Below are positions 22,945 to 30,790 of a stretch of 37,738 nt of DNA, in pieces. Each line of letters opens with the position of its first letter. Position 1 is the first letter of the stretch. The translations under genes were made by a program, and so were the position numbers. Under the pieces are notes generated by a model. The model saw only the letters and a program-made list of their open reading frames with translations. It did no database searches and was not told where the DNA came from. This stretch comes from an uncultured Isosphaeraceae bacterium (lineage in GTDB: Bacteria > Planctomycetota > Phycisphaerae > Phycisphaerales > SM1A02): the NCBI GenBank assembly GCA_964609425.1, contig CAZSSV010000001.1, positions 905-38,642 of the forward strand, read 5' to 3'.

Positions 22945-23622
22945 ATGGACGACTTTCACAAGAGCCTCGATTCCGTTCTCGGCGACCTGCTGGCGCAGGG
23001 CCGTCGCGTGACCGATCTCACGCTGACGGCTGTGGAGTCGTACTTTGAGAACGACGCAGAGGCCGCAGCGGGTGTGATCAGAGCCGACGCCACCATCGAC
23101 CATGTCGATGTCCAGATCGAGCGTGGGTGCATCGCGTTGATGGGACATCGGCCGAGTGGTGAGTTCGATCAACGGTCGATCCTGACCATCGTGAAGATCA
23201 ATAACGAGCTTGAGCGGATTGCCGACTGCGCAGTCAACATCGCTGAGGCGAACGAGCAGCGGAAGGACACCGAGGTGGCGGACACGCTGCAGGTGATGGC
23301 CAATAGTGTTGTCGGCATGGTCAGGGACTCGGTCCGGGCGCTGGACGCACGAGACACGGACCTCGCTCAACGCGTACTGGCCTTCGACGACACGGTTGAT
23401 GCCTTCAAGGATGAGTTGGTCGAACGTGCCCAGACCGCGTTGGCACAAGGCGTTGTGTCGGTTGGCGCTGCGATGCAGTTGCTTGCGGTCGTCCGCGCGG
23501 TCGAGCGGATGGCGGACCACTGCACAAACATCTGTGAGCAGGTCATCTATCTGGAAACAGGCAAGATCGTTCGGCACCTTCCCTCGGGGTGGACCAAGCC
23601 GGCGCTCCCAGAGGACGCCTGA
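22945..23622 (+). CDS. phoU: PhoU-family phosphate-signalling regulator
   Basis: Two PhoU repeats with ELERIADCAVNIAE and AVERMADHCTNICEQVIY. 225 aa. No pst genes in the window. Confidence 0.88.
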   Translation: MDDFHKSLDSVLGDLLAQGRRVTDLTLTAVESYFENDAEAAAGVIRADATIDHVDVQIERGCIALMGHRPSGEFDQRSILTIVKINNELERIADCAVNIAEANEQRKDTEVADTLQVMANSVVGMVRDSVRALDARDTDLAQRVLAFDDTVDAFKDELVERAQTALAQGVVSVGAAMQLLAVVRAVERMADHCTNICEQVIYLETGKIVRHLPSGWTKPALPEDA

Positions 23623-23627
23623 TCGGC

Positions 23628-25049
23628 ATGAGCGAAATTGAGTCGATGTGCGGACGTCTGGAGGCCTGTGGCCAACCGGGGCTCGCCAAGGCCCTCGCAA
23701 CGGAGCCGGGTTTGCTCAAAGATGCGCGCCGAGTGGACTGGGAGGCCGTCCCCTCGCTTGTAGAACGATGTGTTCGATCGCGGCCAATCGCTTTCGAGGG
23801 TGAGCCAACTCCGGCACCGTGCGTGACGACCAATGCATCACTGGTGACGGACTCGATCGCGCTGGTGGACGAATCGGCGCTCCGGACTGCGGGCGAAGCG
23901 ATGCTGGCCGATGGAAGGGTCGCAGTTTTCACAGTCGCGGGCGGTCAGGGCACCCGGCTCGGATGGAAGGGTCCGAAGGGCACATTCCCCGCCAGTCCCG
24001 TGTCGGGCAAGCCGCTCTTCAGGCTGTTTGCCGAGCAAATTCTTGCAGCGGAACGTCGGTGGGGATGCTCCATTCGGTGGTACATCATGACCAGTGAGGC
24101 CAATGATGCCGAGACGCGTGGCTTCTTCCTGGACAACCGGTGCTTTGGCCTGGATCGCCGGAAGATCATGATGTTTCCGCAGGGCATGATGCCGGTCTTT
24201 GACGCGTCCAGCGGTCATGTGCTCCTGAGCGACGCAGGTTCGATGGCCATGAGTCCGGACGGGCACGGCGGCTCATATGCCGCGCTGCTTCAGAGCGGCG
24301 CGCTCGATCAGATGGAAGGCCGAGGCATTGAGGCCATCAGTTACCACCAGGTGGACAATCCGTTGGCGCCGGTGCTTGACCCGGTCTTTCTCGGATTGCA
24401 TTGCCATGAAGCCTTCTCTTCAGGTGAGTACACGAGCAAGATGGTGCCCAAGGCCGGCCCGGACGAACGGGTCGGGGTGTTTGCACTTCGAGGCGGCGTA
24501 CCCGGGGTGGTCGAGTATTCGGACATGACCGAGTCGCAGACGACCGCCGTGGATTCGCAAGGCCATCTTCGCCTCTCCGCCGGCAATGTGGCCATGCACA
24601 TCATCAGTAGGGACTTTGCGCGGCGTGTGGCGGACGCCGGGGAGGCGTCGCTGCCGTGGCACCGCGCCGAGAAGAAGGTGGCGTACTTCAATCCTGAGAC
24701 GTCCACGACCATCACACCGGGCTCGGCCAATGCGGTCAAGCTTGAGCGGTTTGTGTTTGACGCCATGTCGATGGCGAGGCAGCCGGCGATTCTGCAAGTC
24801 GACCGGGCATCCCAGTTCGCGCCCATCAAGAACGCCACGGGGGTCGATTCAGCAGAGAGCAGCCGGCGGATTCAGTCGGATGTGTACGGCTGCTGGTTGG
24901 AGTCGGCCGGTGTGGCCGTGCCGAGACGGCCGGATGGTCACGTTGACGCCGACATTGAGATTTCACCCCTGACGGCGATGTCGCAGGCGGATCTCCAGGG
25001 AATGTCGCTTCCATCGGCGGTGGAAGCCGGCGCGTCACTGAGCCTGTGA
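23628..25049 (+). CDS. UDP-sugar pyrophosphorylase of the eukaryote-type UDPGP family (UAP1-like UDP-N-acetylhexosamine pyrophosphorylase)
   Basis: VAGGQGTRLGWKGPKGTFP, WYIMTSEANDAETRGFF, FPQGMMP and SPDGHGGSYAAL are collinear with human UAP1 motifs (LAGGQGTRLG, WYIMTS, FQQGMLP, APDGNGG). Confidence 0.85.
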   Translation: MSEIESMCGRLEACGQPGLAKALATEPGLLKDARRVDWEAVPSLVERCVRSRPIAFEGEPTPAPCVTTNASLVTDSIALVDESALRTAGEAMLADGRVAVFTVAGGQGTRLGWKGPKGTFPASPVSGKPLFRLFAEQILAAERRWGCSIRWYIMTSEANDAETRGFFLDNRCFGLDRRKIMMFPQGMMPVFDASSGHVLLSDAGSMAMSPDGHGGSYAALLQSGALDQMEGRGIEAISYHQVDNPLAPVLDPVFLGLHCHEAFSSGEYTSKMVPKAGPDERVGVFALRGGVPGVVEYSDMTESQTTAVDSQGHLRLSAGNVAMHIISRDFARRVADAGEASLPWHRAEKKVAYFNPETSTTITPGSANAVKLERFVFDAMSMARQPAILQVDRASQFAPIKNATGVDSAESSRRIQSDVYGCWLESAGVAVPRRPDGHVDADIEISPLTAMSQADLQGMSLPSAVEAGASLSL

Positions 25050-25074
25050 GGCGGGCAAGGGCGAGGGTGATGTC

Positions 25075-25857
25075 GTGACGGCACGAGCCTGGATGTGGCC
25101 GGTCCTTGCGATGCTGCTGCTGACTTCACCCAGCTTTGGGAGCGAGGGCAGTTCGCTCGTTCGGCACCCGGACTCGATCAAGGGGAAGGTCGAGCAGAAG
25201 GTCGAAGACTCGCTGGCCAGCGACGGGCCCTGGTTGCTCTTCGGGGTGATCATGCTCGCGGGCGTGGGTATCCCGATCAGTGAAGAGATCCTGATTGTTC
25301 CCGCGGGATTCCTGATCGAGCGGGGTGTACTCCCGCTCTGGGGTACCGTGGCCGCCGCGTGGGCCGGCGTCGTGCTTGCCGATCTGATTTGGATGCTGCT
25401 GGTACGACGCTTTGCGCACAGACTGCTACGCATTCGGTTTCTTCGCCGCATGTTTCACCCACGCAGGCTGCTCGAAATCAAGCACCTGCTGGACCGATGG
25501 GGGGCATGGGTGGTCATCTTGGGCCGGGTTCTCCCTGCCGCCCGTACACCCGTCATCACCGCTGCAGGATTGGCGCACATGCCCATTGGCCGGTTCCTCG
25601 CAGGCGAGTGCATCGGTGCGGCCAAGAGCGTGGCATGGCAACTTTTCGCGGGGTGGCTGATTGCCAAAGGGATCGGGGACTCCATGCACAACCGACATCT
25701 TCGGGATGCGCTGCTCATCGGGGGGGGCATTCTGATGGTGGTCGTGGTAGCGTGGTGGATTCGAAGACACATGGCAGGCCGGCGACATCGACCGAGGGCT
25801 CCGATGCGCTGGCTTCGAGAGGCGTGCAAGGCACCCGCGGACAGAGCCCCCACATGA
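25075..25857 (+). CDS. DedA/VTT-domain membrane protein, paralog 1
   Basis: GVGIPISEEILIVPAGFL... and the VLPAARTPVITAAGL re-entrant-loop motifs are typical of DedA. GTG start at 25075, with ATG 25093 as an alternative. Confidence 0.82.
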   Translation: MTARAWMWPVLAMLLLTSPSFGSEGSSLVRHPDSIKGKVEQKVEDSLASDGPWLLFGVIMLAGVGIPISEEILIVPAGFLIERGVLPLWGTVAAAWAGVVLADLIWMLLVRRFAHRLLRIRFLRRMFHPRRLLEIKHLLDRWGAWVVILGRVLPAARTPVITAAGLAHMPIGRFLAGECIGAAKSVAWQLFAGWLIAKGIGDSMHNRHLRDALLIGGGILMVVVVAWWIRRHMAGRRHRPRAPMRWLREACKAPADRAPT

Positions 25858-26525
25858 CCGAATTCATCACCCAATACGCCGACTTCCTTCCGTGGGTTGT
25901 GTTGGGGTTGCTGCTGGCGAGCGGCTTCGGAATTCCCATCGGCGAAGACATCATCATCATTCCTGCTGGCGTTCTCGTGGGAGAGCAGGTGCTCGGCCCA
26001 AACATCTGGGCGCCGACGCTTGTCGCGGCAATTGTTGGCGTGGCGACGGCGGACATGCTCTGGTTTATGTGGTGCAGCGTCTTCGGGACGCGGCTTCTCC
26101 ATCGACGATTCATCAGGAAGTTCCTGCATCCCAAGCGGCTCCTTCAGGCGAAGCACCAAATTGACCTGAGGGGCATCTGGGTCGTCGTGGCGGCGAGGTT
26201 CATTCCGGGAAGCAGGACGCCCGCCATCACGGTGGCGGGCCTCATGCATCTTCGGCCGCTTCGATTCATCGTCGCGACTTGGTCATGCGTCCTCGTCACG
26301 GCGCCGATGCAGTTCTTTGCGGGCGTGCTTGTTGGCTATGGGATTGCGTCGCGGGATACGTTCGGGGCGCTGCAATGGGTCATCGCTGGAGCGGTTCTGG
26401 CGGTCGTGATCTCGACCGCGGCCGTCGTCTTCGCCAGATCACGGGGCCGTCGCGCCGAGCCTCCACGTGCTCGCGCCCGGTGGCTCAAGCGGTATCGCAG
26501 TCCTTCCGGTTCTCGCCCGGGTTGA
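25854..26525 (+). CDS. DedA/VTT-domain membrane protein, paralog 2
   Basis: GFGIPIGEDIIIIPAGVL... and FIPGSRTPAITVAGL, collinear with paralog 1. The ATG overlaps the upstream TGA (ATGA). The track ORF 25359-26525 is a 5' over-extension. Confidence 0.85.
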   Translation: MTEFITQYADFLPWVVLGLLLASGFGIPIGEDIIIIPAGVLVGEQVLGPNIWAPTLVAAIVGVATADMLWFMWCSVFGTRLLHRRFIRKFLHPKRLLQAKHQIDLRGIWVVVAARFIPGSRTPAITVAGLMHLRPLRFIVATWSCVLVTAPMQFFAGVLVGYGIASRDTFGALQWVIAGAVLAVVISTAAVVFARSRGRRAEPPRARARWLKRYRSPSGSRPG

Positions 26526-26551
26526 CACCCTCGGGGTGGTATCCTGCCACC

Positions 26552-27682
26552 ATGAGAGCAGTGATCACCGGTCAAATCGGCATCGATAAAAAGCCATACC
26601 TCGAATCCGTCCGGGCACTCGGAGGCGAACGAGGGCAGCGCATCGAACTCTTTCATGTCGGTGACATGATGTACCAGGAGGCGCCCGACATTCGTCCGGG
26701 CCGCATTCTCGATCTCCCACTCAGTCGTTTGGCCTCGCTGAGGCGGGCGGCATTCAAGGACATCATTGCAGACACGACCCCCATCGTGGATTGCCCCGAC
26801 TTGATCGTGAACACGCACGCCACCTTCCGATGGCGGCACGGGCTTTTCAGCGCCTTCGACTTTGATCAGATGGAGAAGTTGAGGCCGGACATGTTCATCT
26901 GCCTGCTCGACAACATCGAAGTCGTGCACGATCGATTGCACGATGAGCACGACATCGACGCCACGTTGAAGGACTGCATGGTGTGGCGGGAGGAGGAGAT
27001 TCTTGCGACCGAGTTGCTCGCCAGTGCGATGGGATGTGCCGATCAGTTCTACATCCTGAGCCGTGGCCGACAGCAGGACACCTTCGAAACGTGTCTGCGG
27101 CTCGTGACACGCCCCGACATGAAGCGGGTGTATCCATCCTTCCCCATGAGCCACGTCATGGACATGCCGGACGTGCTTGAGGAGATCGGTCGGTTTCGAA
27201 ATGCCCTTGCGGAGCACTTCATCACCTTCGATCCGGCGGATGTGGACGAGAAGTTGTTGCTGGACCGGGCCATCGAGGCGGCCAAGACTGGCCAGGACTG
27301 GATTGACGTGACGCCCCACGCGTATGGCGGTCGCGAAGGGCGGGAGCTCAAGGTCCGCGTCAGGGAGGTGCTGGACATCGCGGGAGATGTCGACGGGCAG
27401 ATCTACATGCGAGACTTCAAACTGATCGACCAGAGCGACATGATTGTCTCACTCGTTCCCGAGTTGCCCGGTGGCATTCCCGGCCTGTCCAGTGGTGTCG
27501 AGCGGGAACTTCAGCATGCGTGGGAACACACCAAGGAGGTCTACGTGGTGTGGAAGCCGGCCAAGCCACCGTCACCCTTCATCACCGAGACGGCGACGAA
27601 GATCTTTCCGGATGTCGATTCGGCCTTGGAGTACTTTGAATCCGAGCGGATGTTCGCGCCCGGAAACCTCTTCGGCCACTGA
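26552..27682 (+). CDS. Two-domain hypothetical protein: kinase-like N-domain with degenerate P-loop + nucleoside 2-deoxyribosyltransferase-like C-domain
   Basis: The N-domain (MRAVITGQIGIDKKPY...LIVNTHATFRWRHGL...FICLLDNIEVVHDRL) is collinear by eye with archaeal-type adenylate kinase, but GQIGIDKK replaces GxPGxGK[ST]. The C-domain (RVYPSFPMSHV...IDQSDMIVSLVPELPGGIPGLSSGVERELQHAWEHTKEVYVVW) has the NDT/flavodoxin-like pattern. Confidence 0.6.
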   Translation: MRAVITGQIGIDKKPYLESVRALGGERGQRIELFHVGDMMYQEAPDIRPGRILDLPLSRLASLRRAAFKDIIADTTPIVDCPDLIVNTHATFRWRHGLFSAFDFDQMEKLRPDMFICLLDNIEVVHDRLHDEHDIDATLKDCMVWREEEILATELLASAMGCADQFYILSRGRQQDTFETCLRLVTRPDMKRVYPSFPMSHVMDMPDVLEEIGRFRNALAEHFITFDPADVDEKLLLDRAIEAAKTGQDWIDVTPHAYGGREGRELKVRVREVLDIAGDVDGQIYMRDFKLIDQSDMIVSLVPELPGGIPGLSSGVERELQHAWEHTKEVYVVWKPAKPPSPFITETATKIFPDVDSALEYFESERMFAPGNLFGH

Positions 27683-27684
27683 CA

Positions 27685-28506
27685 TTGGCCACACGCCGCA
27701 TCAAACTGACGGTTGCCTACGACGGCACCGATTTCAAGGGCTGGCAGAAGCAGCACCCTCCCGGTGAGCCGCCACTCAGAACGGCCCAGGGCGTGCTCGA
27801 GCAAGCTGTTCGGCAGGTGGTGCGTGAAGAGATCTCGGTCCACGGCGCCTCGCGTACCGATTCGGGCGTGCACGCGATGGGGCAGGTTGCTGCGTTCGAC
27901 ACGGCCAGTGAGATCGATATGGACCGCTTGCCGCCGGCTGTTTCGTCCAGATTGCCCGGAGATATCCGGGTGATTGATGCCGCGGTCGTTCCCGATGCGT
28001 TCAATGTCATCGGGGATGTCGAGGCCAAGGCCTATCGATATCGCGTTGCCTTCGGACGCCGCGAAGCCCACGAGCGTCCGCTGTTTGATCGGCGGTATGT
28101 CGCATGGGTCCCGTGGCAGCAGGACCTGGATGCCATGAACGCTGCGGCGGCACATCTGGTCGGATGTCACGACTTTGCGAGCTTCACGCGTCTCAATCAC
28201 GGGCGGGAGTCCACCATTCGCGTGGTCCACGCCTGCGACGTCGAGTTGACGGGCGGTCGGGAACTCACCATCACGGTGTCCGGGGAGGGGTTTCTCTGGA
28301 ACATGGTTCGCATCATCGCGGGCACGCTCGTGGAAGTGGGCGCCGGCCGACGCGGCGTAGACTCAATCAGTGAGTCCCTGGCGGCTCGAGACCGCGGTGC
28401 GGCCGGCGTCACGATGCCCCCGGAAGGACTCGTCCTGCTGTGGATCAGGTACGGCCTCCCGGGGTCGGGCCGCCAGCGGCAGCTTCACCGGCAACGCTCA
28501 TCCTGA
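27685..28506 (+). CDS. truA: tRNA pseudouridine(38-40) synthase
   Basis: RIKLTVAYDGTDFKGWQKQ and the catalytic SRTDSGVHAMGQV. TTG start 3 nt after the upstream stop. Confidence 0.92.
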   Translation: MATRRIKLTVAYDGTDFKGWQKQHPPGEPPLRTAQGVLEQAVRQVVREEISVHGASRTDSGVHAMGQVAAFDTASEIDMDRLPPAVSSRLPGDIRVIDAAVVPDAFNVIGDVEAKAYRYRVAFGRREAHERPLFDRRYVAWVPWQQDLDAMNAAAAHLVGCHDFASFTRLNHGRESTIRVVHACDVELTGGRELTITVSGEGFLWNMVRIIAGTLVEVGAGRRGVDSISESLAARDRGAAGVTMPPEGLVLLWIRYGLPGSGRQRQLHRQRSS

Positions 28507-28540
28507 CGCACCGGGCCGGTTGGTCCGGTACCGTCGTGGC

Positions 28541-29626
28541 GTGGAACGGAGCGACAAGGCGTGGGTCGGCGCGCTCAGGCGCCGGCTTGAGGGTGAGGCT
28601 GGGCGGTGGGGTCGCCGCGATCCGGCACGCCATCCCGAGGCGGCTCACAAGGCGGCGCTCCGGACGCACCTGGTGGACGTGCTCGATCGGTTCGATGACG
28701 CGGGGGACCACTGGATGCTTGCAGTCGCCGCGTGCTGGGGTCGGTCGCTGGATGCGGCCGATGCGTGGATCGACGCGGTCGGGCCGGTCCACGCTGCGGC
28801 AGCCCTCGATGCCATGGGTTCGACTCCGGTCCAGGACCGCCTTCATCAATCCACAGACGTCGTGAAGGGGATCGCCACGCACGGGCCGTTCCTGCCGGAG
28901 CGGCTCGCCGGGGAGGCGCTGCGCGCCCTTGAGGCCGTCGGCGCGTCAAGGCATGTCCGGCGCGGTGTGGGTGCCGCGTTTCGGACCCTGCACGCGTCCG
29001 AGGCCACACCCACCACAGTTCAGGGCGTTCTGGCGGCGGTGCGTGAGGCAACACTGGCCATGGAGGTTCCCGAATGGGCGGCCGCCATGCAGGCACGGGG
29101 CGCCGTCCGCGTGTTGGACCGCAGACTCGCTTCAGCCCTGGCGCTTCTGGAATCGCAGTCGGCGTGGCTGGTCGACTGTGGGGATCCGATGCTTCACCCC
29201 GGGATGCGCGCCGTGCTGGCGGGGTTACGGGCCAAGGCCTCGCAGCGGTATCACTTGGCTCGCGCAGCCGCCGCAGGGGACCATGCAGACGCGGAAGACC
29301 GGCGTATGCTGGTGGATGCAGCGCGGCGGATCGAGCGTGGTGTGGACACCGCAGATGTGCATGCCCGAATCGCCGAGATGGCAGCGCGGTGTTCGCCGCC
29401 TTCCCGGGTGCCCGAAGCCCTCAGGGCGATCGGTTGGCCGGCGGACCCGGCAGCGCAGTTGACGTGGAGCCCCGTTGCAGTCATCGACCGGGGCGCTCAG
29501 GGCCGGCTTCTGACGCTCATGGAAAGCCGCTTCCATCAGGCGGGAGCGCGGAACACACAGCGGTGGCGTCAACGGTGCGAGGAGGTCGAGGCTGCGGCGA
29601 GGGCGGTCCTGCGCGGGCCAAAATGA
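28541..29626 (+). CDS. Hypothetical Ala-rich helical protein (approx 361 aa)
   Basis: GC3-consistent long ORF downstream of truA. The start is ambiguous (TTG 28520 or GTG 28541). The part of the track ORF upstream of this overlaps truA. No recognisable motif. Confidence 0.5.
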   Translation: MERSDKAWVGALRRRLEGEAGRWGRRDPARHPEAAHKAALRTHLVDVLDRFDDAGDHWMLAVAACWGRSLDAADAWIDAVGPVHAAAALDAMGSTPVQDRLHQSTDVVKGIATHGPFLPERLAGEALRALEAVGASRHVRRGVGAAFRTLHASEATPTTVQGVLAAVREATLAMEVPEWAAAMQARGAVRVLDRRLASALALLESQSAWLVDCGDPMLHPGMRAVLAGLRAKASQRYHLARAAAAGDHADAEDRRMLVDAARRIERGVDTADVHARIAEMAARCSPPSRVPEALRAIGWPADPAAQLTWSPVAVIDRGAQGRLLTLMESRFHQAGARNTQRWRQRCEEVEAAARAVLRGPK

Positions 29627-29645
29627 CCGTCGGCAGCGGAGTACC

Positions 29646-30353
29646 ATGCCCGTCATGGCACGCATGCTCGTTTTCGGGCCCCATCCGGACGATCAGGGAC
29701 TGGGCATGGGCGGTTCAATCGCCAAACTGGTCGATCAGGGGCATGACGTCGTGCTCGTGGACATGACCGACGGCGAACCCACGCCATTGGGCGATCCTCA
29801 GACGCGGGCGGCGGAGGCCAGTGCTGCAGCGGACATCCTTGGCGTTCGCCGAGTTCAGGTGGGCCTTCCCAACAGGTGTGTTCAGCACACGATCGAGGCC
29901 CGGCATGCGGTGGCGGGCATCATTCGCGAGCACCAGGCGGATGTCCTCTTCGCGCCCTATCCGCAGGATGCCCATCCGGACCACATTGCCACGACGCGGA
30001 TCGTTGAGGACGCTCGATTCGACGCGAAGTTGACCAAGACGGATCTTCCGGGCAAGCCTGTGTATCCGACGTGGCTGTTTCACTACTACTGCACGCACCT
30101 TCGCATCGTGCCTTCGCCGTCCTTCTTTCTTGATATCAGCGGATATCAGGACCGCAAGCGGGCGGCGATCGTCGCGTACGACACCCAGTTCGTGCAGCCC
30201 GAGAAGAACCGCAGGGTGGTGCAATGGGTCGAGCAGGCAGGTGCCTACTTTGGAAGCCGGATTGGGACGGACGCGGCAGAGCCCTTCCATGCGCCAGAAC
30301 CGCTCGGCCTGCGTGGGTTCGATCAGGTGGCTGGCGTGCCGGCCCCGCTGTGA
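29646..30353 (+). CDS. PIG-L/LmbE-family N-acetylglucosaminide deacetylase (BshB1-like)
   Basis: VFGPHPDDQGLGMGGSIAKL...(zinc-site PDD), HPDH, and a YDTQF tail, typical of LmbE/BshB deacetylases. Confidence 0.82.
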   Translation: MPVMARMLVFGPHPDDQGLGMGGSIAKLVDQGHDVVLVDMTDGEPTPLGDPQTRAAEASAAADILGVRRVQVGLPNRCVQHTIEARHAVAGIIREHQADVLFAPYPQDAHPDHIATTRIVEDARFDAKLTKTDLPGKPVYPTWLFHYYCTHLRIVPSPSFFLDISGYQDRKRAAIVAYDTQFVQPEKNRRVVQWVEQAGAYFGSRIGTDAAEPFHAPEPLGLRGFDQVAGVPAPL

Positions 30354-30790
30354 ACGCCTGTTGATCCAAAGCCGCTGGTGCCGCGCCGCGTGGCGTCGAG
30401 TTCCTCGACCGCCTCAATGGTGCAGTGGGTGACCGGAGACACGATCATCTGGGCGACCCGCATGCCTGGCTCGATCACGAACGCCGCGCTGCCGAGATTG
30501 ATCAGCGGCACCCTGACCTCACCGCGATAGTCTTCATCGATGGTGCCCGGGGCGTTCGGAAGGGTGACGCCGTGCCGTGACGCCAGGCCCGAGCGGGGTC
30601 GGACCTGGCCCTCGTGACCAGGCGGCAGCGCGATGGCGATGCCGATGGGAATCAGCTGAATGTCCCCTGGTGCGATGGTGATCGGTTCGGGGATGGCTGC
30701 ATGCAGATCAAGTCCGGCGGCACCGTCGGACTGGTACTCCGGCAGATGAGCCGATTCGGTCAGTCGGTGAACGAGAAGGGTCGGTGGCAT
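30323..30790 (-). CDS. dut: dUTP diphosphatase
   Basis: AAGLDL, RSGLASRHGV, GTIDEDYRGEV and RGTSGFGSTG are dUTPase motifs 1-5. The 3' end overlaps the convergent deacetylase gene by 31 nt. Confidence 0.92.
   Translation of the reverse strand: MPPTLLVHRLTESAHLPEYQSDGAAGLDLHAAIPEPITIAPGDIQLIPIGIAIALPPGHEGQVRPRSGLASRHGVTLPNAPGTIDEDYRGEVRVPLINLGSAAFVIEPGMRVAQMIVSPVTHCTIEAVEELDATRRGTSGFGSTGVHSGAGTPAT

Follow-up and report, generated by a model that had tools for sequence, protein, structure and literature searches.

A conserved fusion of an adenylate-kinase-like domain with an NDT/DNPH1-like domain in Phycisphaerae and archaea

The locus and the two domains of its product

We analysed a stretch of 37,738 nucleotides from the genome of an uncultured bacterium of the Phycisphaerales (contig CAZSSV010000001.1), hereafter called the window, in which a gene on the forward strand (26552..27682, +) encodes a kinase-like/DNPH1-like fusion protein of 376 amino acids plus stop. 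The gene starts with an ATG at 26552, 26 nt past the second of two DedA genes, and ends with a TGA at 27680-27682; 2 nt separate this stop from the TTG start of truA, the gene for tRNA pseudouridine synthase (27685..28506, +; Pfam PseudoU_synth_1, E = 1e-40), with which it is probably co-transcribed. An original prediction, made from the letters of the window, had described the product as an uncharacterised fusion of an adenylate-kinase-like fold carrying a degenerate P-loop with a nucleoside 2-deoxyribosyltransferase (NDT)-like domain, and had placed the gene between a DedA pair and truA, which was borne out. The reading frame is uninterrupted, and because the family comprises more than 5,000 homolog clusters at 90% identity, a chance open reading frame (ORF) is ruled out. 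A longer ORF of 467 aa starting at 26279 was rejected as the gene because the homologs begin at the Met of 26552. The motifs THATFRW, LLDNIEVVHDRL, RVYPSFPMSHV and IDQSDMIVSLVPELPGGIPGLSSGVERELQHAWEHTKEVYVVW, which had been read from the sequence, were all found in the translation, and GQIGIDKK is encoded at 26570-26593 (+), where it had been placed.

An AlphaFold2 model of the full protein, built on 47 diverse full-length homologs, reached a predicted local distance difference test score (pLDDT) of 93.3 and a predicted template-modelling score (pTM) of 0.92. In a fold search of approximately 48,000 PDB representatives that is independent of Foldseek, the model split cleanly into two parts, and Foldseek, which was run as well, concurred. 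Both halves have the folds that had been named for them, adenylate-kinase-like and NDT-like. Searching the whole protein against Pfam and NCBIfam yielded AAA_17 (E = 2.2e-7) and an adenylate kinase match (NF003122/PRK04040) of 19.6 bits that does not reach the cut-off of 155, and no curated family that covers the full length. Because no such family spans the protein, the label "uncharacterised" stands.

The C-terminal domain (aa 189-368; 27116..27655, +) was assigned to the NDT/DNPH1 fold through the fold search, Foldseek and matches of relatives to PF05014 (Nuc_deoxyrib_tr). In the fold search, aa 188-368 matched the 2'-deoxyribosyltransferase 7o62_A with a Z of 15.7 and a root mean square deviation (rmsd) of 2.0 Å over 130 residues; other matches were 7m5h_B (Z 14.3), 6evs (13.8), 1f8x_A (12.1), MilB 4ohr (11.7) and YtoQ (11.4), with 7m5h, 6evs, 8rh3, 1f8x and 1s2d all within Z 11.9-14.3. 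Modelled separately, the domain reached a pLDDT of 92.2 and again gave the NDT fold, and human DNPH1 (8rqd) was ranked second by Foldseek (E = 3e-5). PF05014 was matched by 35 of the 47 relatives at E ≤ 1 (best 1.5e-6), and two archaeal relatives, P0282 (29.5 bits) and P0300 (29.0 bits), exceeded its gathering score of 28.8 bits. The matches stretch over 115-130 residues for ~83-97 profile positions, which fits an insertion of ~45 aa (aa 229-275; 27236..27376, +) that the model shows as a helix and a beta-hairpin and that is present in neither NDT nor DNPH1. In searches of PDB sequences, the NDT matches were lost with the C-terminal-only profiles A4 and A5 and with the single fragment P0246; profile A8, which includes archaeal C-terminal domains, recovered BcmB 4jen_A as the best sequence-level PDB match together with the NDT 7m5h_A (E 0.3-0.9).

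Residue conservation, given here and below for an alignment of 89 diverse bacterial and archaeal members, was high at positions predicted to correspond to the active site of DNPH1. The first strand and its loop, YPSFPMS (aa 194-200; 27131..27151, +), contain the predicted catalytic-triad Tyr194; Y194, S196 and P198 are conserved in 100% and T/S200 in 99% of the members. The pair R287-D288 (27410..27415, +) contains the predicted general-acid Asp, equivalent to D80 of DNPH1 (D288 99%, R287 97%, and Q294 99%), and with profile A8 HMMER placed D288 on the Asp of both BcmB 4jen_A and NDT 7m5h_A. The same alignment placed S313-x-G-x-x-x-E319 on S-P-G-T-H-I-E of BcmB and on D-A-G-V-A-S-E of the nucleoside NDT 7m5h. 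This stretch, S313-S-G315-V-E-R-E319 (27488..27508, +), contains the predicted phosphate-binding Ser (96%) and Gly (100%) and the predicted nucleophile E319 (100%), and its Ser-Glu spacing is the same as in rat DNPH1 (Ser87/Glu93) and human DNPH1 (S98/E104). A catalytic Glu had been proposed within the motif VERE; because E317 is variable, this proposal holds for the second Glu, the invariant E319, and fails for the first. S341-P342-F343 (27572..27580, +; 90, 94 and 91%) contains a candidate second phosphate-binding Ser, equivalent to S128' of DNPH1, assigned only from its order and spacing (22 residues from Glu to Ser here, 24 in human DNPH1). Within the insertion, the acidic positions E/D233 (100%) and E/D272 (97%) are conserved as well.

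In human DNPH1, Y24, D80 and E104 form the catalytic triad, E104 carries the covalent intermediate, and the 5'-phosphate is held by S98 and by S128', the latter donated by the partner subunit (PMC10603095). A Tyr in the first strand goes with deoxyribose, and MilB has a Phe there that admits ribose (PMC10603095). In rat DNPH1, Ser87 and the backbone of Gly89 bind the phosphate and Glu93 binds the sugar (PMC3834327). Judged by these correspondences, the fusion's C-terminal domain retains the predicted counterparts of the DNPH1 catalytic set, namely Tyr194, Asp288, Glu319 and Ser313. Because Ser313 is of the nucleotide type, in place of the nucleoside-type Asp, and Tyr194 is of the deoxyribose type, 2'-deoxynucleoside 5'-monophosphates (dNMPs) are predicted as the substrates.

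DNPH1/Rcl (8rqd, 8os9, 2khz, 4p5e) has the same fold as this domain (Foldseek E 3e-5 to 1e-3, TM ~0.7 on the target), the same order of Tyr, Asp and Glu, the S-x-G-x-x-x-E motif with a Ser at the 5'-phosphate site, and, further on by ~22-24 residues from the Glu, another conserved Ser, which in the fusion is a candidate counterpart only. The two share ~15% identity, however, and the 45-aa helix-hairpin insertion and the 188-aa kinase-like domain belong to the fusion alone, whereas DNPH1 is a eukaryotic protein that stands alone, forms a dimer and is specialised for 5-hydroxymethyl-dUMP. The NDTs (PF05014; 7o62, 6evs, 1f8x, 8rh3) are the best structural matches of the domain (Z 12-15.7) and share the nucleophile Glu, but they have an Asp at the place of Ser313, act on nucleosides by transfer instead of hydrolysis and lack a kinase-like domain. 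MilB and BcmB (4ohr, 4jen), which are N-glycosidases of cytidine monophosphate (CMP) or hydroxymethyl-CMP, are nucleotide-specific NDT-family hydrolases with an S-P-G-T-x-x-E motif; they differ from the fusion in being specific for ribonucleotides, in having Phe for the triad Tyr, and in standing alone within antibiotic biosynthesis clusters.

The likeness to MilB and BcmB raises the alternative that the fusion is a ribonucleotide N-glycosidase that converts nucleoside monophosphates to ribose 5-phosphate and base, as these two enzymes do or, functionally, PpnN, with the N-terminal domain as a sensor of energy charge. BcmB, a CMP N-glycosidase, heads the PDB sequences matched by the C-terminal profile, and a Ser at position 313 is common to ribo- and deoxyribo-specific nucleotide glycosidases. 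Tyr194 is invariant, however, where the ribo-specific MilB has Phe, and the linked genes described below (deoC, an NrdD-like reductase and a NUDIX gene) all lie on the deoxyribose side, so that we give this alternative a low probability and retain dNMPs as the preferred substrates.

The N-terminal domain (aa 1-188; 26552..27115, +) was assigned to the archaeal adenylate-kinase fold by fold match, profile and Pfam. It matched the Aeropyrum pernix adenylate kinase 6ln3_A with a Z of 21.4 and an rmsd of 2.1 Å over 186 residues (Foldseek E = 2e-9) and the Odinarchaeota adenylate kinase 7owe with a Z of 17.4, and the family profile matched archaeal adenylate kinases among PDB sequences with E = 1.7e-15. 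Compared with archaeal AdkA (6ln3, 1ki9, 1nks, 7owe), the fold is the same, the sequence is collinear over ~130 residues and the DTH motif keeps its TH; in contrast to AdkA, the domain lacks the G-K-[ST] of Walker A, its Walker B Asp is unconserved, and the Arg of "kIRtL" at the site for adenosine monophosphate is replaced by Leu, in a conserved I52-L53. Instead of the canonical Walker A GxxGxGK[ST] and the Walker B Asp (DTH), the window protein has GQIGIDKK (aa 7-14; 26570..26593, +) and NTH. Among the 89 members, G7 is conserved in 99%, G10 in 100% and K/R13 in 97% (K 56, R 30); position 12 is D, G, N or E, and position 14 is S or T in 12 of 89. The consensus is GQxGx[DN]K[KR] in the bacterial members and GISGSGR in the archaeal ones, and a canonical GK[ST] is kept in two sampled members only. 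The P-loop is therefore degenerate, as had been proposed, and it is so throughout the family and not through local decay.

Despite the altered P-loop, the N-terminal domain is far from decayed. NTHATFRW (aa 87-94; 26810..26833, +), aligned to IIDTHALVK of 6ln3, is the counterpart of the Walker B strand of archaeal adenylate kinases ("DTH") and of the hairpin that follows; position 87 is N in 43, S in 27 and D in 10 members, and H89 (94%), F92 (94%), R93 (94%) and W94 (96%) are conserved. WREEE (aa 145-149; 26984..26998, +) lies in the helix after the lid position, with W145 in 98%, R146 in 96%, E/D147 in 98%, E148 in 91% and E149 in 99% of the members, and may derive from the R-x-R-D-x-E motif of the adenylate kinase lid. 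Together with R64, the residues H89, F92, R93, W94, W145, R146 and E147-149 are conserved in 91-99%. A planctomycete homolog at great distance (26% identity) has kept the C-terminal motifs better than the N-terminal ones. The domain has lost the conserved Mg-coordinating residues and keeps a Gly-rich loop with a Lys or Arg, three arginines and a histidine. It is probably a module that binds phosphate or a nucleotide and lacks the usual apparatus for Mg-dependent phosphotransfer, and its chemistry would not be that of adenylate kinase.

Two alternatives concern this domain. That the protein is a plain adenylate kinase or a generic AAA ATPase is what its names at JGI and NCBI imply, and the N-terminal fold agrees with them. 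Against this stand the PRK04040 score far below its cut-off, the degeneracy of both Walker motifs, a canonical adk elsewhere in the genome (PF00406, 88.4 bits) and the conserved NDT-type domain that makes up half of the protein, and we regard this possibility, the least credible of those considered, as effectively excluded. The second alternative is that the N-terminal domain works as an active kinase of a non-canonical kind on deoxynucleosides (or nucleotides) and supplies the dNMP which the C-terminal domain then cleaves, so that a single polypeptide would convert imported deoxynucleosides to base and deoxyribose 5-phosphate. The conservation of K/R13, R64, R93, R146 and H89 (≥94%), a position 12 that is mostly D, N or G and may tolerate the loop conformation of a Gly-type Walker A, and the two members with a canonical GK[ST] are in keeping with such a kinase, as is a search for dNK and TK family kinases in the window's genome and the complete genome G001, which found none; the pTM of 0.92 further suggests that the two domains are held in a fixed arrangement. 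However, the Walker A Ser/Thr and Walker B Asp that usually hold Mg are not conserved, the P-loop Lys is replaced by Arg in the archaeal members, the "kIRtL" Arg has given way to I52-L53, and a dNK family kinase is present in genomes that have a fusion-deoC operon (G394, G429), so that the survey of dNK and TK gives a mixed picture of whether the domain stands in for a missing kinase. We consider an active kinase unlikely, if the most serious of the competing explanations, and prefer a binding module.

Distribution and gene neighbourhoods

In total, more than 5,231 homolog clusters at 90% identity and 903 representatives at 50% identity were identified, and full-length members with both domains were found down to 28% identity. 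In a sample of the Phycisphaerae, the fusion was present in 168 of 201 genomes (159 of 180 of high quality), almost always as one copy per genome, and it behaves as a single-copy core gene of this class; within the same sample it was not found in families f7, f107 and f109 and in most of f102. In the rest of the phylum the fusion is rare (two further matches in a phylum sample of 301 genomes). The second large branch, with members from the Thermoproteota, is archaeal and takes in Thermofilum pendens, Infirmifilum, Bathyarchaeota, Brockarchaeota, Conexivisphaerales and Nitrososphaerota, and there is one named member from the Anaerolineae. In a FastTree phylogeny, which is unrooted so that a direction of transfer is not readable from it, the named archaea and the Phycisphaerae formed separate, well-supported groups. 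Database records name the protein "hypothetical protein", "AAA family ATPase" or "adenylate kinase", with a single JGI record titled "adenylate kinase/nucleoside 2-deoxyribosyltransferase", and no paper on the fusion came up in our searches of the literature.

At 80 related loci, which represent close relatives of the window gene, the fusion protein was more conserved than TruA in every case, with a median identity of 75.6% compared to 50.6%; the median identities of two other neighbours, PIG-L and dUTPase, were 61 and 60%. This conservation above that of housekeeping neighbours suggests an important cellular role. It also bears on the notion of a defence or signalling module, the latter half of which the original prediction had entertained, in which an NDT/TIR-like domain would act as an effector depleting NAD(P) or nucleotides under the control of a P-loop sensor. 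NDT-like domains occur in conflict systems, and further down the fold list of the C-terminal domain there are TIR domains (Z 9.7-9.9). Yet there was no PADLOC match, within the class the gene is nearly universal, vertically conserved and present as a single copy, it surpasses its housekeeping neighbours in conservation, and these neighbours form no defence islands, and we consider a defence or signalling module effectively excluded, with a very small residual probability.

By comparing coordinates between two class-wide searches, we found deoC, the gene for deoxyribose-phosphate aldolase, immediately downstream of the fusion on the same strand in 14 genomes from four GTDB families of Phycisphaerae (11 genomes in 6 genera of f6, and one genome each in f5, f113 and f115). 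The gap is ~10-80 nt in most of these genomes and ~200 nt in G093, and in G299 the two genes overlap. The downstream deoC is a bona fide equivalog (TIGR00126, 236 and 197 bits, cut-off 117), and three more genomes (f4, f6, f110) have deoC 3-11 kb from the fusion. The arrangement is kept across roughly 50% protein divergence; it may be shared by descent across the families, and the 14 genomes are therefore not independent events. The substrate of DeoC, deoxyribose 5-phosphate, is the product of a DNPH1-type reaction, so that this context matches a dNMP N-glycosidase. Across the sample, a DeoC-like gene was found in 167 of the 201 genomes, and an equivalog of DeoB, the classical source of deoxyribose 5-phosphate, above the cut-off in none of them (in 14 control genomes, DeoB was matched in 7 and above the cut-off in 6); five genomes, of which four are closed, were also checked for the C-domain of pyrimidine-nucleoside phosphorylase, and none gave a match. 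Phycisphaerae thus appear to retain an "orphan" deoxyribose-phosphate aldolase. In G299, a gene that encodes an FHA domain fused to HATPase_c, a histidine-kinase-like ATPase, lies directly upstream of the fusion-deoC pair (L104:1315-2463(+)).

The linkage to deoC also bears on whether the C-terminal domain transfers the sugar instead of releasing it. As a phosphodeoxyribosyltransferase, it would swap bases for salvage (dNMP + base' → dN'MP + base), like the phage enzyme DmtZ, and the N-terminal domain would possibly handle the product. The covalent-intermediate chemistry is identical for transfer and hydrolysis, nothing in the sequence would separate a transferase from a hydrolase, and the archaeal reductase and NUDIX contexts described below fit the building of pools as well as their degradation. 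A natural NDT-family enzyme with both deoxyadenosine monophosphate hydrolase and deoxyribose 5-phosphate transfer activity was described in 2026 (PMC12884076). DmtZ, likened to the fusion by description only, is a dNMP enzyme of the NDT family from the prokaryote world that is sometimes fused to a dUTPase-like domain; it differs in that its partner is Dut-like and not adenylate-kinase-like, in having Asn for the triad Asp, and in being phage-specific and tied to Z-DNA synthesis (PMC12884076). The deoC operon, however, indicates free deoxyribose 5-phosphate as the product and therefore hydrolysis, and we consider base exchange rather improbable.

In archaea, the neighbours are again deoxynucleotide-related. 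At seven to eight loci of one archaeal sublineage, an NrdD-like protein with helix-turn-helix and ATP-cone domains is encoded divergently upstream of the fusion and a NUDIX protein of 140-146 aa directly downstream (L177:3702-5735(-) and L177:7091-7519(+), with the same layout in L180-L183, L189 and L190). A NUDIX enzyme that converts deoxynucleoside triphosphates to dNMPs, followed by a dNMP glycosidase, would make a coherent pair. At 27 of 55 loci (L115-L194, e.g. L117:5582-5842(-)), the archaeal fusion has a gene of the glutaredoxin fold immediately upstream in divergent orientation; this gene encodes 83-116 aa with one Cys or none where CxxC is expected, its outer neighbours vary among the loci, and it may be a dedicated partner of the archaeal fusion.

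A predicted deoxynucleotide N-glycosidase

From the folds, the residue conservation, the distribution and the gene contexts, we infer substrate, product, mechanism and the role of the N-terminal domain as follows. On balance, we think it probable that the protein is a DNPH1-like dNMP N-glycosidase that yields deoxyribose 5-phosphate, fused to a probably regulatory nucleotide-binding domain derived from adenylate kinase. The original prediction is supported in that both folds are matched and the P-loop is degenerate throughout the family; where it had spoken of a "nucleotide-processing or signalling enzyme", a deoC-linked N-glycosidase of deoxynucleotides, of the DNPH1 type, can now be proposed. 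The C-terminal domain would act as a retaining N-glycosidase of the DNPH1/Rcl type that binds a dNMP, with the 5'-phosphate held by Ser313, the backbone of Gly315 and probably Ser341, and with the invariant Tyr194 selecting deoxyribose over ribose. Asp288 would protonate the leaving base and Glu319 would attack C1', giving a covalent deoxyribosyl-5-phosphate enzyme intermediate from which water would free 2-deoxyribose 5-phosphate, next to the free base. Passed on to DeoC, the product would connect dNMPs to central metabolism without nucleoside phosphorylase or phosphopentomutase, and a second use might be the trimming of deoxynucleotide pools. The N-terminal domain, descended from an archaeal adenylate kinase, would bind a phosphorylated nucleotide as a regulator or as a module for substrate capture.

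Several observations weigh against this interpretation. The window protein itself (P0001) has no PF05014 match at E ≤ 10, and the sequence matches to NDT, DNPH1 and BcmB in the PDB are weak (E 0.2-2), so that the residue mapping rests on short motif alignments and fold similarity. The first-strand loop, YxSFPI[TS] in the family, is unlike the Gly-rich phosphate loop of DNPH1, which is of the YFCGSIRGG type. In the N-terminal domain, the conserved THAxFRW, WREEE, K/R13, R64, R93 and R146 are equally compatible with an active site as with a regulatory site. In the window's own order deoC is not adjacent to the fusion, and the deoC of the window's genome lies on another contig; in archaea, none of 56 metagenome loci showed a deoC within 6 kb of the fusion. 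Because deoC is also present in families without the fusion (f102, f109), other sources of deoxyribose 5-phosphate must exist, and other types of phosphopentomutase or a deoxyribokinase could supply DeoC.

The two domains could also act jointly in a reaction that has so far not been described. The kinase-derived domain might activate a phosphate or a phosphorylated sugar, or position it, for the glycosyl-enzyme intermediate, and with DeoC working towards synthesis, dNMPs would be built from deoxyribose 5-phosphate and free bases by a reductase-independent or salvage route; or the reaction might be a phosphorolysis to deoxyribose 1,5-bisphosphate. Taken together, these two variants seem very unlikely to us; were one of them correct, it would constitute a new deoxynucleotide pathway common to Phycisphaerae and Thermoproteota archaea.

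If the preferred reading of a dNMP N-glycosidase is correct, a whole bacterial class and several archaeal lineages would degrade or police deoxynucleotides by an unrecognised route, in which dNMPs are converted directly to deoxyribose 5-phosphate and this is passed on to DeoC, bypassing nucleoside phosphorylase and phosphopentomutase. Work on DNPH1-type activity has so far centred on mammals and on pathways of antibiotics or phages. The route would explain why Phycisphaerae keep deoC while deoB was not found in the 201 genomes, thousands of annotations as "adenylate kinase" or "AAA ATPase" would need correction, and the N-terminal domain would be a well-conserved case of an adenylate kinase fold put to another use.

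Local synteny around the window gene

The neighbourhood of dedA and truA that had been noted for the window gene holds for its clade and not beyond. Among the 80 close loci, truA is adjacent to the fusion in 57 (53 directly downstream on the same strand, 4 convergent), and it was not found in the flanks of the fusion in more distant Phycisphaerae families. Because the adjacency is lost there, we treat it as synteny, and truA and dedA, whose proximity is confined to the close clade, were rejected as functional partners. The local block (window 23589-30790) consists of UDPGP, DedA, DedA, the fusion, truA, an unknown gene, PIG-L and, on the reverse strand, dUTPase, and is kept in many close relatives. 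The fusion is its most conserved member; PIG-L was found in 42 and dUTPase in 27 of the 80 loci.

The same synteny, with a Phycisphaerales-type gene 73-78% identical to that of the window, was found on contigs of metagenome-assembled genomes (L032, L040, L058, L066, L077, L095 and others) that are titled Klebsiella sp., Chitinophaga pinensis, Ca. Kuenenia stuttgartiensis, Singulisphaera, Vicinamibacteraceae or Isosphaeraceae, and these record labels look unreliable. The unknown gene after truA is an ORF of 418 aa (window 28370-29626, +) with no Pfam match, for which tblastn finds a counterpart in 1 of the 80 related loci (36% identity). Its listed start at 28370 overlaps the end of truA by 136 nt, and its true start therefore probably lies later.

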